Shown piece by piece: positions 479 to 8,084 of a stretch of DNA of 24,208 nucleotides. Within the stretch, counting starts at the first letter, position 1. Every line of letters starts with the position of its first letter. The position numbers and the translations under genes were made by a program. The stretch comes from an uncultured bacterium (lineage in GTDB: Bacteria; Verrucomicrobiota; Lentisphaeria; Victivallales; UBA1829), in contig CASERY010000015.1 in NCBI GenBank assembly GCA_949290385.1, positions 1 to 24,208 on the forward strand, written 5' to 3'. The notes beneath the pieces were generated by a model. It was given only the letters and a program-made list of their open reading frames with translations. It did not search any database and was not told the origin of the DNA.

Positions 479-1150
479 ATGACAATGCCGCTGATTGCTG
501 TAAACTTTGTTCAGGCATCTTTTCTGAATTTGGATCTGTTGGATATTTACTGGGTTTTTGCCATCGTGGGGACTGTATGGCTTACCATTTCCACCATTTT
601 GGCATTCTACGGTGCCGGCGACCATTCGGGGCTTGATGTAGATGTTGACATGGATGGAGATATTGATATTCCTCATGTGGATACAGGATTCCTGGACCTG
701 AAAATTTTTTCTGTACGTGCCATTCTGGCATTTTTCACCATGTTCGGATGGGGAGGAGTTGTTTTCGGGGACAGAGGATGGTCCGGATTCTTTCTGGCAT
801 TTTTCTGCGGTCTTGTGATGATGTTTCTTACAGCGCTGTGCATGGCTCTGGTGTTGAAGCTGCAGCAGAATGGAACGGTGAAAAACAGTTCTCTCAAAGG
901 AAAAACAGGCGTTGTGTATCTTTCTGTGCCGGCAGGACGGGTGGGACGGGGACTTGTAACGGTGGCTGTGAATGGTGCTTCCAAAGAGGTTTCCGTAATC
1001 AGTGATAATGCTCTGGATACAGGCACTTCTGTGGTGCTGAAAGAATATTTGGGACAGGATCTTTTTCTGGCCTGTGCAGCACCGGAACAGAAGTCTGTTG
1101 CGAAAGAATCAGGCACGGTTCAGGAAAAAGCGGAAAAGGAAGGGAATTAA
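479..1150 (+). CDS. YqiJ/NfeD-like inner membrane protein with a C-terminal OB-fold domain
   Basis: ATG follows AAGGAAAGGA. It has an N-terminal TM segment, an acidic loop (DVDVDMDGDIDIPHVD), further TM helices, and a C-terminal soluble segment (KGKTGVVYLSVPAGRVGRGLVTVAVNGASKEVSVIS) typical of the NfeD OB-fold. It sits directly upstream of a flotillin gene, as in the yqiJ-yqiK pairing. Confidence 0.7.
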   Translation: MTMPLIAVNFVQASFLNLDLLDIYWVFAIVGTVWLTISTILAFYGAGDHSGLDVDVDMDGDIDIPHVDTGFLDLKIFSVRAILAFFTMFGWGGVVFGDRGWSGFFLAFFCGLVMMFLTALCMALVLKLQQNGTVKNSSLKGKTGVVYLSVPAGRVGRGLVTVAVNGASKEVSVISDNALDTGTSVVLKEYLGQDLFLACAAPEQKSVAKESGTVQEKAEKEGN

Positions 1151-1425: not shown

Positions 1426-3123
1426 ATGGTAATTACAGGCTCAATCAACAGCATCACGGGAACAGCCCTTCTTTTTCTGGTGGGGATTTGCATTCTGGGA
1501 CTGATTCTGCTGGCATTTCTTGCACGGTATAAAAAATGCCCGTCCGATCAGGTTATGGTCGTGTTTGGTAAAACCGGCGGTCATAAGGCAAGCACCTGTA
1601 TCCACGGAGGCGCGAAGTTTATCTGGCCGATTATTCAGGATTACGGATTCCTTTCGCTGAGACCTGTTCAGCTGGAAGTGAATCTTCAGAATGCATTGTG
1701 CCTGCAGAATATCCGTATTAATGTCCCGTCTGTTTTCACGGTGGGTATCAGCATTGATGAAACCCTGATGGGCAATGCGGCCAACCGCCTCCTCGGCCTG
1801 CGTCAGGAAGCTATTGCAGAACTGGCAAAGGACATTATTCTGGGTCAGCTGCGTCTGGTAATTGCATCCATGACCATTGAACAGATCAATTCCGACCGCG
1901 AAACATTCCTGCACAATATTGAAGATAATGTGGCTGGTGAGCTTCAGAAGATCGGTCTCCAGCTTTTGAACGTGAATATTACCGATATTTCCGACGAAAG
2001 CGGATATATTGATGCCATCGGAAAACGTGCCGCCGCCGAAGCCATTAACAAAGCCCGTGTGGATGTGGCTGAAGAAGAGCGGAAGGGTGGAATTGGTGAA
2101 GCGGAAGCCCGGAAAGTGCAGCGTATTGCGGTTTCAAAAGCCGAAGCTGCCGCCCAGTCGGGTGAAGCGGAAGCGGAACGTGAGCGTCGTATTGCGGTGA
2201 AACAGGCCGAAGCCGCCGCCCTTTCCGGAGAGGCCGAGGCGGACAAGCAGCGTCGTATTGCGGTGAAACAGGCTGAAGCCGCTGCCCTTTCCGGAGAGGC
2301 CGAGGCGGACAAACAGCGTCGTATTGCGGTGAAACAGGCTGAAGCCGCTGCCCTTTCCGGAGAAGCTGAGGCGGACAAGCAGCGTCGTATTGCGGTGAAG
2401 CAGGCTGAAGCCGCCGCTATTGAAGGTGAAAATATTTCATCTATTGATATTGCAAAATCCAATGCGAACAGAGCGGAACAGGAAGCAGATGCCTTCCGTA
2501 TTGCTGAAATTGCTAAACGCGTGGCTGAAGCCGCTATCAAACAGGCTGACTATCAGGCGGAAATGGAAGCGCAGAAGGCTCGTGCGGGCATGGAAGAAGA
2601 ACGTCAGCGTGCAGAAACCATCGTCAAGGCAAAGATTGAAAAAGAACAGATTGTTATTTCTGCAGAAGCGGAAGCAGAACGACTTTCTGCAGAAGCTAAA
2701 GGACAGGCTGATGCCATCTATCAGAAACTGGAAGCCGAGGCAAAAGGTAATTTCGAAATTTTAAAAGCCAAGGGCGAAGGTTTTCGCGCCATTATAGAGG
2801 CATGTAATTCCGATGCTGATGCGGCAAGCAAAATGCTCCTGATTGAAAAGATGGAAGAGATTGTTAAACTGCAGACGGAAGCTATCCGCAATATCAAGAT
2901 TGACAAAGTTACCGTATGGGATTCTGCGGGTGCTGCTGATGGAAAAAGCTCCACAGCGAATTTTCTCAGCAGTATGATGCAGAGTCTGCCTCCTATCCAT
3001 GATGTGGCACAAATGGCCGGAATTGACTTGCCGGATTATTTAGGGAAGGTGGCTTCAGGAAAAAGCGGAAAGGATGCGGAAAAAACAGTGAAAGATGTTT
3101 CTGCATCTGAAAAAAATATTTAG
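1426..3123 (+). CDS. Flotillin-family SPFH/Band-7 protein (YqiK/FloT-like)
   Basis: AAGGAG lies 8 nt before the ATG. It has an N-terminal TM anchor, an SPFH core (VMVVFGK...FIWPIIQDYGFLSLRPVQLEVNLQNALCLQNIRINVPSVFTVGI), and a long Glu/Ala-rich coiled-coil flotillin tail. This is the only gene in the window ending on TAG (3121-3123). An in-frame TGA follows at 3151-3153. Confidence 0.9.
   Translation: MVITGSINSITGTALLFLVGICILGLILLAFLARYKKCPSDQVMVVFGKTGGHKASTCIHGGAKFIWPIIQDYGFLSLRPVQLEVNLQNALCLQNIRINVPSVFTVGISIDETLMGNAANRLLGLRQEAIAELAKDIILGQLRLVIASMTIEQINSDRETFLHNIEDNVAGELQKIGLQLLNVNITDISDESGYIDAIGKRAAAEAINKARVDVAEEERKGGIGEAEARKVQRIAVSKAEAAAQSGEAEAERERRIAVKQAEAAALSGEAEADKQRRIAVKQAEAAALSGEAEADKQRRIAVKQAEAAALSGEAEADKQRRIAVKQAEAAAIEGENISSIDIAKSNANRAEQEADAFRIAEIAKRVAEAAIKQADYQAEMEAQKARAGMEEERQRAETIVKAKIEKEQIVISAEAEAERLSAEAKGQADAIYQKLEAEAKGNFEILKAKGEGFRAIIEACNSDADAASKMLLIEKMEEIVKLQTEAIRNIKIDKVTVWDSAGAADGKSSTANFLSSMMQSLPPIHDVAQMAGIDLPDYLGKVASGKSGKDAEKTVKDVSASEKNI
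2119..2430 (+). repeat. In-frame 66-bp (22-aa) tandem repeat, about 4.7 copies, inside the flotillin coiled-coil region
   Basis: Unit starts fall at 2119 (degenerate), 2185, 2251, 2317 and 2383 (partial), giving an exact 66-nt period. Three copies encode identical RRIAVKQAEAAALSGEAEADKQ and differ only by synonymous changes (gcc/gct, gag/gaa, aag/aaa). Confidence 0.95.
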
Positions 3124-3555: not shown

Positions 3556-4263
3556 ATGAGATTCTGCAGTTCCACTGTACTTTTACTGTTGTTCGGGCTG
3601 ATGAGCGGATGTGTTTCCGAAAAACCTGTGAATATGAACTATATCATGGACTTCCAGACAGGCAACAGGACTGTGGTCAATAAAATTGAGAAAAAAAGCA
3701 GTAAAATTCCTTCTGCTTCAGGACAGTCCAGTTTCTACCGGCTGCTTGCTGAAAATGGACTCAAAGAAAAAGCCGATGGATTTTTTAAAGATGCTCCTGT
3801 GTATTCCTGTCTTTTCTGTTTTGTGGATGAGGATGGCAATACGGGATGGGGCTTCAGTCGTGAAGATACGCTGGAATGTGCAGCAGCCGCGGCTCTTTCT
3901 CTGCCGGATGAAGAGGTGAGAAAAAATCTGGCTCAACGGGCTGCAGATCTGTGGCAGACTGGAAGTGATCGTGAAATCCTGTTGTTTTATGATGAAGTTT
4001 TACGGATGAAATCTCCTTCATGCTGTCTGCTGTTTGAGCAGGAAGGCGAGAACCCTCTTTGCCCGAAAGCGGTACGGGAAGGATATAAAAGAGTGTCTCC
4101 TGAAACCGGGGATACCGAGTTTGTGCGTCATGGACTGCAAAGAGAATTTGCAGAAAACGGCATTCTTGTCAAAGAATACTATTGTGTTAATGGGGAATGT
4201 GTGGGAAATGTGCTGGTTTTTGATCCTGTTACAGGCCTTTTCCCAGCACAGGAAGAAGAATAA
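3556..4263 (+). CDS. Hypothetical lipoprotein
   Basis: AAGGAG lies upstream of the ATG. The signal peptide MRFCSSTVLLLLFGLMSGC ends in a lipobox-like MSG|C. I recognise no family for the mature part. Terminal stop is TAA. Confidence 0.6.
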   Translation: MRFCSSTVLLLLFGLMSGCVSEKPVNMNYIMDFQTGNRTVVNKIEKKSSKIPSASGQSSFYRLLAENGLKEKADGFFKDAPVYSCLFCFVDEDGNTGWGFSREDTLECAAAAALSLPDEEVRKNLAQRAADLWQTGSDREILLFYDEVLRMKSPSCCLLFEQEGENPLCPKAVREGYKRVSPETGDTEFVRHGLQREFAENGILVKEYYCVNGECVGNVLVFDPVTGLFPAQEEE

Positions 4264-6224: not shown

Positions 6225-6393
6225 AGAACGGAGAAAAGGATTTTGTCTTTTCCCGTATTGTTCCCTGAAATAAAATTTTTGGGAATGCCGGATAAGAAAA
6301 ACTTCACTTTTTAAAAAAAGAATGTATAATAGAAAGAGTTCGGCAAAATGCCGGATATTATTTCCCGCAGGTTTGAAAGAGGCTTTGAAAAAA

Positions 6394-7749
6394 ATGAATA
6401 TGCAGAAAATCAATTACGGACTGGGCCGCAGAGATATTACTCCTTCGGTGCCGGTTTCTCTGGCCGGATATTTCAATACCCGTATGTACACAAATATTCT
6501 GGACCGCATTGAATGCAGGGCTGTTGTGCTGAGGAGCGAAGGAAAACAGTTCCTCCTTCTTCAGTTCGATCTGCTTTGTGTAGATTCAGAACTTTATGAA
6601 AAGGTGCGTGAACGAATCCAGGATTTGAAAGTCTTTAAAGCAGACAATATTCTGATGACTGCCACGCATACCCATACGGCTCCGGATTATCGGAAAAGCT
6701 GTCTGGCGCGCAACCCGGATTATATGAAATTTCTTTTGGATCAGGCGGAAGCGGCTGTGCGAGAGGCAGTGAATGATTCCAGAGAAGGGACTTTCTCCAG
6801 CACAGTTACAAGCGACGGGCGTTTTCTTTTCAACCGCAGATACTGGATGAAAAATGGAAAAGTATTGACCAATCCAGGAAAGCTGAATCCGGAAATTGAT
6901 CGTCCGGAAGGGGTGACAGATCCGGAAATTCCCATGTTGGCAATCTGTAATTCCTATGGTGCAATTCAGGTGCTGTTTGCCAACATTGTCAATCACGCTG
7001 ATACGATTGGAGGAACAGAGGTTTCCGCAGACTGGCCCGGATTTTTCCGCAGATCTCTGGAAAAAGATTTCGGTCCGGAGTCCATGGTGTTTCCGCTGAT
7101 TGGAGCGAGCGGGAATATCAATCATTTTGATGTCTCCACCGAACGGAATCAGACATGTTATGAGGAAGCCAGACGTATTGGTCTTGGCTATGCGGAAACC
7201 GTTCGTTTTTCTCTGGAAACGCTTCAGAAAATGCCGTCCTTTGAGTTTAAGATCTGTGCAAAGGAATTTGATGTTGCCCCTGCTGAAGTCAGCGCGGAGG
7301 AACTTCAGGTCGCCAGAGAGACCTTGGAAAAATACAAGGATGAGCCTGATATCCGGACATTGAAAACAGATTTGACCAGTGAGGATCTGGTATCTGGAAA
7401 ACCTGCAGTTCTGAAGTATTTTGCCCAGAATCTGCTGGATATTGCAAGTCATACTGATCCTTTCAGATGCCGTCTTTGCGGATTGGATCTGGGGTCGGTG
7501 ATGATTGCTTCATTGCCTGGAGAACCTTTTACAGAAATCGGACTTGCTTTGCGCAAGAAGATTTTTAAAGATAAAATCTGCTTTGTGGTAACGCATTCCA
7601 ATGGATTAAGCGGTTATATTCCGAATGTGTGCTGTTATGGACGAGGCGGCTATGAAACGGAAGTCCGTTCAAATCCGTATGAGCATTCTTTTGCGGAAAA
7701 ACTTGAACAGGCTTGGACAGAAATGTCCAAAGAGCTGGAATTCAAATGA
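6394..7749 (+). CDS. Neutral/alkaline ceramidase-like N-terminal-domain hydrolase
   Basis: The N-terminus GLGRRDITPSVPVSLAGYF...RIECRAVVL and TATHTHTAP resemble the non-lysosomal ceramidase-like family. I chose the ATG at 6394, which is preceded by GAAAGAGG. The tracked ORF starts at 6322. Confidence 0.65.
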   Translation: MNMQKINYGLGRRDITPSVPVSLAGYFNTRMYTNILDRIECRAVVLRSEGKQFLLLQFDLLCVDSELYEKVRERIQDLKVFKADNILMTATHTHTAPDYRKSCLARNPDYMKFLLDQAEAAVREAVNDSREGTFSSTVTSDGRFLFNRRYWMKNGKVLTNPGKLNPEIDRPEGVTDPEIPMLAICNSYGAIQVLFANIVNHADTIGGTEVSADWPGFFRRSLEKDFGPESMVFPLIGASGNINHFDVSTERNQTCYEEARRIGLGYAETVRFSLETLQKMPSFEFKICAKEFDVAPAEVSAEELQVARETLEKYKDEPDIRTLKTDLTSEDLVSGKPAVLKYFAQNLLDIASHTDPFRCRLCGLDLGSVMIASLPGEPFTEIGLALRKKIFKDKICFVVTHSNGLSGYIPNVCCYGRGGYETEVRSNPYEHSFAEKLEQAWTEMSKELEFK

Positions 7750-8005: not shown

Positions 8006-8084
8006 CGGGGCATCGCTCAGTCTGGTTTAGAGCGCTTGGTTCGGGACTAAGAGGTCGCTGGTTCGAGTCCAGTTGCCCCGACCA
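8006..8084 (+). tRNA. tRNA-Pro (anticodon CGG), CCA encoded
   Basis: I folded the cloverleaf by hand. The acceptor is CGGGGCA/TGCCCCG, and the D arm is GCTC-AGTCTGGTTTA-GAGC. The anticodon arm is CTTGG-TT[CGG]GA-CTAAG, with U33 and G37. The T arm is GCTGG-TTCGAGT-CCAGT, followed by discriminator A and CCA. Confidence 0.9.

Follow-up and report, generated by a model that had tools for sequence, protein, structure and literature searches.

In-frame copy-number variation of a 66-bp repeat in a Lentisphaeria flotillin gene and its possible bearing on cage size

What is a near-perfect tandem repeat doing in the middle of a flotillin gene? The question is raised by a 24,208-nucleotide stretch of DNA from an uncultured Lentisphaeria bacterium of the order Victivallales (contig CASERY010000015.1 of assembly GCA_949290385.1, forward strand; the whole stretch is called the window below), in which the gene for a flotillin-family protein of 565 residues contains consecutive copies of a 66-bp unit, each encoding 22 residues. 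Since 2022, cryo-electron microscopy (cryo-EM) has established that SPFH proteins – flotillin, stomatin, prohibitin, HflK/C and erlin – form closed membrane cages. The likely answer is that the array is an in-frame variable-number repeat in the wall helix of such a cage, known as CC1, that it keeps the 11-residue (hendecad) register of that helix, and that the number of units may set the size of the cage.

A coding repeat that differs between strains

Tandem Repeats Finder (TRF) returns just one strong array in the window (2122-2417, period 66, 4.5 copies, 89% matches, score 395), its remaining rows scoring 46 or less. A first-pass annotation, made from the letters of the window alone, had described three consecutive blocks with an identical 22-residue product, RRIAVKQAEAAALSGEAEADKQ, differing only at synonymous sites and flanked by a degenerate and a partial unit, and translation of the open reading frame (ORF) confirms this description and its coordinates. 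Pairwise, the three RRIAVKQAEAAALSGEAEADKQ units differ at 3, 3 and 4 nucleotides, every one of the differences being a synonymous transition at a third codon position. With the unit taken to start at the Gly of GEA, a framing that suits the family as a whole and is called the family frame here, the array becomes five complete 22-residue units (consensus GEAxADkxRRIAVKQAEAxAxx) with the conserved motifs KGGIG and GEN at its edges. Identity between units, 62-63 of 66 nucleotides in the frame of the first-pass annotation, reaches 65 of 66 in the family frame, and 66 is divisible by three: the array is an in-frame coding variable-number tandem repeat. An antisense ORF of 198 residues (1944-2540, minus strand), which spans and mirrors the array and is itself repetitive (ASASPERAAASACFTAIRRCLS), was considered as a gene and rejected for want of independent support; the Ala/Glu-rich codons of the sense strand account for it.

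The identical 565-residue protein is encoded on six further contigs (L001-L006), 99.3-99.8% identical to the window and coming from six independent metagenome assemblies (k87, k127, k141 and a scaffolder). Together with the window that makes seven sequences, from different samples and assemblers, and all have five units. A seventh contig of the same species, L007, encodes a protein of 543 residues that is identical save for one missing unit. Its unit haplotypes are those of the L001 allele without unit 2, and its junction yields 36 87-mers present in no longer allele, so that it is no simple collapse of a known one. A second lineage offers the same spectacle at the DNA level, with 5, 4 and 3 units in L088, L010 and L089 between flanks that are 99.2-100% identical, and with two of the L088 units identical at 66 of 66 nucleotides. 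The copy number of the 66-bp repeat differs between near-identical strains, and it does so in 22-residue steps. Scans of Joint Genome Institute (JGI) metagenome contigs, one with a degenerate 66-nucleotide unit and one with a 32-nucleotide junction pattern, each gave 0 matches and no further same-species alleles. A phase-variable on/off switch was also entertained and is rejected, since the observed alleles differ in length only by multiples of 33 or 66 nucleotides and all of them keep the reading frame. For genome annotation there is a caution in this: when strains differ in flotillin length, the cause can be genuine allelic variation and need not be an error of assembly.

How far does the variation extend? 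When length was taken between the anchors AEEERKGGIG and EGEN in the 120 closest homologues, it equalled 20+22n residues in all 120 of these Lentisphaeria proteins, none being off register, with n=1 in 9 proteins, n=2 in 37, n=3 in 67 and n=4 in 7. The five-unit allele of the window stands at the top of the observed copy-number range. On a neighbour-joining tree of the 120 built from flanking sequence only, at least 36 copy-number changes are required; 4 of the 9 multi-member clusters with flanks at least 99% identical are polymorphic, and one such cluster contains n=1, 2, 3 and 4. The surmise in the first-pass annotation that copy number could vary, and its proposal to compare related genomes, are thereby borne out: L007 has one unit fewer, and four further lineages differ in copy number between flanks at least 99% identical. 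It had named two outcomes that would speak against its reading, an assembly artefact and orthologues with a fixed copy number and diverged units, and neither was found. In most species representatives unit identity is merely 40-58 of 66 nucleotides, which puts the window among the minority of genes with a fresh expansion. The 22-residue unit is an old, family-wide module of bacterial flotillins, of which only the last duplications are recent. (A phmmer search with the 114-residue array against 1.84 billion representatives was uninformative, returning only 19 matches, mostly to unrelated low-complexity proteins.)

The units also carry a record of what has happened since they arose. Among the seven full-length alleles there are 8 segregating sites in the 330 nucleotides of the array and 6 in the 1368 nucleotides elsewhere in the gene, a 5.6-fold enrichment (Fisher p=0.0019), and 6 of the 8 single-nucleotide polymorphisms in the array change to a base already found at the same position of another unit. 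This is the mark left by gene conversion or by unequal exchange among units. The RRIAVKQAEAAALSGEAEADKQ-type unit, compared in 23 copies, varies at six sites, every one of them synonymous (P=2e-4; 1.4e-3 when changes are restricted to transitions), so the expanded peptide has been under purifying selection since duplication. Synonymous divergence is 0.18-0.25 from unit to unit as against 0.008 between strains outside the array, and the duplications therefore predate the sampled strains, young as they are relative to species splits. The recent duplication claimed in the first-pass annotation holds for the last duplications; it does not hold for the module, which is ancient and shared by the family, nor on the time scale of the strains. 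Certain diagnostic residues are common to the units within one species, for instance AAAL in the window protein and AQAQ in P0003, which indicates concerted evolution or independent expansions.

The eleven-residue period

Is 22 residues the true quantum? A census across phyla took the segment from a G-x-x-G motif to GEN in GTDB species representatives of Lentisphaerota, Kiritimatiellota, Bacteroidota, Clostridia and other groups. Both anchors were located in 76 representatives, and every one of them obeys 21+11k, the lengths being 21, 43, 65, 76, 87 and 109 residues; four loci missed by the anchor pattern have a length that is visibly 21, and a single unit is found in Clostridia. It is the 76-residue class, to which L036, L038, L055 and other Bacteroidota loci belong, that answers the question, for the three loci named reach their length through one additional half unit of 11 residues, such as GEAEAQAKANI, and the structural quantum is therefore 11 residues and not 22. 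A different route to a longer helix is seen in L048 (Oscillospiraceae) and L071 (Candidatus Xenobia), where the flotillin ORF has a larger internal duplication of about 66 residues that takes in the G-x-I-G anchor, one 22-residue unit and the GEN hinge region; its length is again a multiple of 22.

The period can also be sought in the part of the helix that does not repeat. For residues 340-459 the family-averaged hydrophobicity autocorrelation is positive at lags 11 (0.29, p=0.0012), 22 (0.18) and 33 (0.31), the values at lags 7, 14 and 21 being 0.04, -0.10 and -0.10, and the dominant Fourier period is 2.2, or 11/5. On indel quantisation and this family-averaged autocorrelation together rests the call of a hendecad: judged from sequence, the array region is built on hendecads and not on heptads. 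The Glu/Ala-rich heptad region of the first-pass annotation has to be given up, the period found being 11/22 residues. Human flotillin has been described as having a wall of parallel helices that form a right-handed barrel and lack heptads (PMC11260169, PMC13000311), and the hendecad period agrees with that cryo-EM description. In the literature, no description linking SPFH proteins or flotillin with hendecad, undecad, 11- or 22-residue repeats was found, nor anything specific on coding tandem repeats in coiled coils generally. Strict 11-residue quantisation across phyla offers an explanation, at the level of sequence, of why the barrel is right-handed, and it corrects the common description of this flotillin region as a heptad coiled coil.

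A possible link from unit number to cage size

The identification as a flotillin made in the first-pass annotation is well founded. Pfam Band_7 (PF01145) matches residues 39-218 at E=2.4e-28 (99.8 bits, cutoff 23.6), which places the protein in the SPFH superfamily, and Pfam Flot (PF15975) gives a sub-threshold match (E=9.6e-4, 19.7 bits, cutoff 27) of which precomputed counterparts are present in several close homologues. Among solved structures human Flot1 (E=2e-23) and Flot2 (6e-21) come top by sequence, query residues 38-249 aligning with 5-213 of Flot1 and 340-522 with 240-405. Human flotillin-1/2 are also the top fold matches (Foldseek, E=2e-15), and there are fold matches to stomatin, prohibitin, HflK/C and QmcA. 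Homologues are labelled ‘flotillin family protein’ in public sources, and by their GTDB titles the related contigs belong to metagenome-assembled genomes of Lentisphaeria or Victivallales from gut and rumen samples. The top NCBIfam model is FloT, but the score of 135.5 bits against the equivalog NF058507 falls so far under its curated cutoff of 700 that the product is a flotillin-family protein and not a FloT orthologue.

Where in that protein do the units lie? An AlphaFold2 (AF2) model from a 58-sequence alignment has a transmembrane helix (10-32), the SPFH domain and then helices at 192-219, 223-333, 340-459 and 464-488, and the whole array is contained in the second of these, unbroken over its 111 residues. 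K220, G221 and G224 on one side, and G334, E335 and N336 on the other, are invariant across the alignment of homologues. Set against human Flot1, the protein has about 64-66 extra residues, equal to three units, exactly at the position of the array, which by homology would sit in the long helix that forms the cage wall (CC1) in human flotillin. The last AF2 helix and the conserved IKIDKVTVWD that follows it are probably a cap helix and strand, to judge by the cap helix and beta-barrel strand of flotillin (PMC11260169).

Human CC1 has 189 residues, in a wall about 140 Å high with two small bends (PMC13000311). A relation published in 2025, subunit number = 0.1782 x CC1 length + 10.22 (PMC12624060, Fig. 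7d), compares different protein families, and its authors left open whether more structures will bear it out. If both guides may be carried over, one 22-residue unit would lengthen the helix by about 33 Å, raise the wall by about 16 Å if it is tilted as in human flotillin, and by the regression add about 3.9 subunits, which is about two per hendecad; the window protein would extrapolate to a cage of roughly 55-58 subunits, a size beyond the calibrated range of the regression.

A mechanism can be envisaged in which slippage, or unequal recombination among the 66-bp copies, adds and removes units in register, and in which gene conversion reshuffles variants from copy to copy. Survivors would be limited to multiples of 11 residues. 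In a right-handed supercoil 11 residues make three turns of helix, so each insertion would leave the same face of the helix towards the neighbouring subunits. Cages would form as they do in the relatives of known structure and would respond in their geometry to the number of units, much as the first-pass annotation suspected when it suggested that a changed coiled-coil length might alter oligomer geometry, and the five-unit allele of the window would build a taller, wider cage than the one- to four-unit forms of its relatives. The repeat itself, its reality, its polymorphism and its quantisation, together with the purifying selection on it and its place in a predicted helix, are matters of observation.

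Several points weigh against this picture. The confidence of the AF2 monomer is modest (mean pLDDT, the predicted local distance difference test, 66), and its helix is broken at both anchors, 220-222 and 334-339, leaving the array possibly a separate segment; the breaks may be artefacts of modelling a monomer, or counterparts of the small bends in human CC1. Cage formation is assumed by homology, no structure of such a bacterial flotillin having been found, and the regression is calibrated up to 189 residues, short of the present CC1 lengths of about 250-270. The hydrophobicity spectrum of the single sequence lacks a clear peak at 3.5 or a strong one at 3.67 and has only those at 7.33 (22/3) and about 2.2 (11/5). 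In-register indels could partly reflect the mutational mechanism, at least where units stay similar as DNA. All the alleles come from short-read metagenome assemblies, with a single contig for the shorter allele of the species, and L007 could still be the collapse of an unseen allele that had two identical units.

Might the variation in length simply be near-neutral? The repeat would slip, the extra helix would be accommodated with assembly and function left essentially as they were, and the number of copies would drift. Frequent change in both directions among close relatives, without obvious ecological pattern, speaks for such drift, and 66-bp slippage would by itself yield steps of 22 residues. 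But 21+11k holds in phyla whose units are merely 40-50 of 66 nucleotides alike, where homology at the DNA level cannot enforce the register; the changes accumulated in the duplicated units are synonymous only; a closed barrel cannot, physically, take up a longer helix without a change of geometry; and CC1 length is tied to subunit number in published data (PMC12624060). We consider drift of this kind unlikely.

A structural alternative takes the breaks in the AF2 monomer at face value. They fall exactly at the two invariant glycine-containing anchors, and human CC1 has small bends as well (PMC13000311), so that the array could be pictured as a rod or hairpin of its own, hinged at KGGIG and GEN and projecting or folding back, in which unit number would determine how long a spacer or arm is, and not cage height and subunit number. 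Models of monomers, however, are often prone to an artificial folding back of long single helices, the human counterpart of the array region is part of a 189-residue wall helix that has no more than its two small bends, and the 11-residue period carries on in the helix past GEN, all of which makes a hinged rod quite improbable. As for an array expanded or collapsed by short-read assemblers, in whose favour it can be said that tandem repeats are known to cause misassembly and that the data are short-read metagenomes, with the shorter allele of the species on a single contig, it is scarcely credible: five units are the common count in seven sequences obtained from different samples with different assemblers, each unit is marked by synonymous sites that distinguish it, the k-mers are longer than the unit, the 36 junction 87-mers of the shorter allele are absent from the longer ones, and series of differing copy number are found again in lineages with clearly diverged units.

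With the wall-helix interpretation preferred, one may ask what a bacterium would want with it. As a tentative suggestion, bacterial flotillins possess an evolvable ‘size dial’, with cages of different strains differing by about 16 Å in height and about 4 subunits for each unit, and gut Lentisphaeria are actively exploring its settings, from two to five units inside one species-level cluster. On that view selection is still acting on cage capacity, and the allelic series is a ready-made test of CC1 length against SPFH cage stoichiometry: natural alleles of two to five units in proteins otherwise 99-100% identical permit the effect of helix length on cage height and subunit number to be cleanly examined.

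In-frame repeat variation as such is already known; what is new is a flotillin wall helix, as we take it to be, with an actively varying and hendecad-quantised repeat. Streptococcal M proteins, the stalks of trimeric autotransporters and the length variants of Lpp are helical rod proteins varied by in-frame coding repeats. In them too units are gained and lost as DNA and protein length varies between strains. They are, however, fibres of the cell surface or the periplasm, on which immune or spacing selection often acts, whereas the window flotillin is probably a cytoplasmic, cage-forming scaffold with a hendecad unit, in which the length of the closed barrel should in turn affect the size of the oligomer.

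The human Flot1/Flot2 cage (9BQ2, 9L3G) shares with the window protein an SPFH domain, a very long Ala/Glu-rich helix, a cap helix and a conserved strand, and its heptad-free, right-handed wall fits the 11-residue period. It differs in being lipid-modified where the window protein would be anchored by a transmembrane helix, in having a second paralogue for hetero-oligomers, of which there is no sign here, and in a helix some 64-66 residues shorter that lacks a recent, copy-number-polymorphic repeat at the DNA level. Bacillus subtilis FloT (YuaG)-YuaF and Escherichia coli QmcA-YbbJ (8Z5G) have the same gene order, an NfeD-type membrane protein gene and then an SPFH gene; FloA/FloT, though, have four short ‘EA repeats’ (PMC4409396) and not 22-residue units of variable copy number. 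The element that varies among the Lentisphaeria alleles is the very parameter of the CC1-length rule (PMC12624060), which was drawn from different SPFH families, whereas the proteins here are near-identical and change by fixed 22-residue steps.

The locus and its neighbours

The features discussed, in the gene and upstream of it, are collected in Table 1. The product of the gene upstream of the flotillin gene matches no Pfam family (the NfeD model included) and no NCBIfam family. Its beta domain in AF2 (residues 143-200) resembles B. subtilis YuaF (2k14; E=1.9e-4, root mean square deviation 1.9 Å), and there are further fold matches to YbbJ of the QmcA-YbbJ complex (8z5g) and to the NfeD domains 3cp0 and 3wwv. 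By predicted structure, then, the locus is a classical NfeD-SPFH pair. A tblastn homologue of this product is found in about 75 of 87 loci, and in most of them its end lies a short way upstream of flotillin; the protein looks like a member of a divergent NfeD subfamily, outside current profile libraries, that stands upstream of flotillin in most related loci across phyla. tblastn gave no NfeD-like match in L008, L009, L010, L016, L017, L019 and L029, so not every member of the clade has the NfeD partner; in L088 and L089 a Peptidase_M24 gene stands upstream of flotillin in place of the NfeD-like gene.

Table 1. Features of the flotillin locus, in window coordinates
Feature	Position	Strand	Remarks
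NfeD/YuaF-like membrane protein gene	479-1150	+	223 residues; C-terminal OB domain, by fold comparison
Flotillin-family gene	1426-3123	+	565 residues; Band_7 and Flot matches, human Flot1/2 top PDB matches
N-terminal membrane-anchor helix (predicted), then RYKK	1453-1521	+	Residues 10-32; AF2 secondary structure, hydrophobic sequence
SPFH/Band 7 domain	1540-2079	+	Residues 39-218; Pfam PF01145
N-terminal anchor KGGIG	2083-2097	+	Conserved; helix break predicted in monomer model
Five-unit array (22 residues/66 bp each)	2095-2424	+	Residues 224-333; predicted single unbroken helix
Family-frame unit starts	2095, 2161, 2227, 2293, 2359	+	
Diverged 66-nucleotide unit	2119-2184	+	Codes for QRIAVSKAEAAAQSGEAEAERE (frame of ORF 1426-3123)
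Three same-peptide units	2185-2250, 2251-2316, 2317-2382	+	Each codes for RRIAVKQAEAAALSGEAEADKQ
Recently duplicated core	2185-2382	+	Three RRIAVKQAEAAALSGEAEADKQ units, frame of the first-pass annotation
Partial unit	from 2383	+	RRIAVKQAEAAAIEGEN...; opening as in the RRIAVKQAEAAALSGEAEADKQ units, divergent afterwards
C-terminal anchor GENISS	2425-2442	+	Conserved; helix break predicted in monomer model
Second, non-repetitive part of long helix (predicted)	2443-2802	+	Residues 340-459; AF2 helix, aligns to Flot1 from 240
Putative cap helix (CC2), then conserved IKIDKVTVWD strand	2815-2889	+	AF2 helix 464-488

Between the NfeD-like and flotillin genes lies an AT-rich intergenic region of 275 nucleotides with long runs of A (1151-1425), in which a simple consensus scan gave no convincing sigma-70 promoter or terminator. 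On the other side, between the flotillin gene and one for an M32 carboxypeptidase, an ORF of 235 residues (3556-4263, plus strand) has a lipoprotein-like N-terminus, a hydrophobic stretch followed by Cys; its product has no family match, and its tblastn matches are in same-species contigs only; the gene is lineage-restricted. About 3 kb downstream of the flotillin gene a protein of 475 residues (6322-7749, plus strand) matches the N-terminal part only of neutral/alkaline ceramidase (PF04734, E=4.7e-11), and its gene is a conserved neighbour in L001-L003; a sphingolipid-related enzyme so close to the gene for a raft scaffold, in a gut bacterium, may merit attention. Farther on, at 8006-8081 (plus strand), is a tRNA gene (RF00005, 59 bits), the sole Rfam match of the window.

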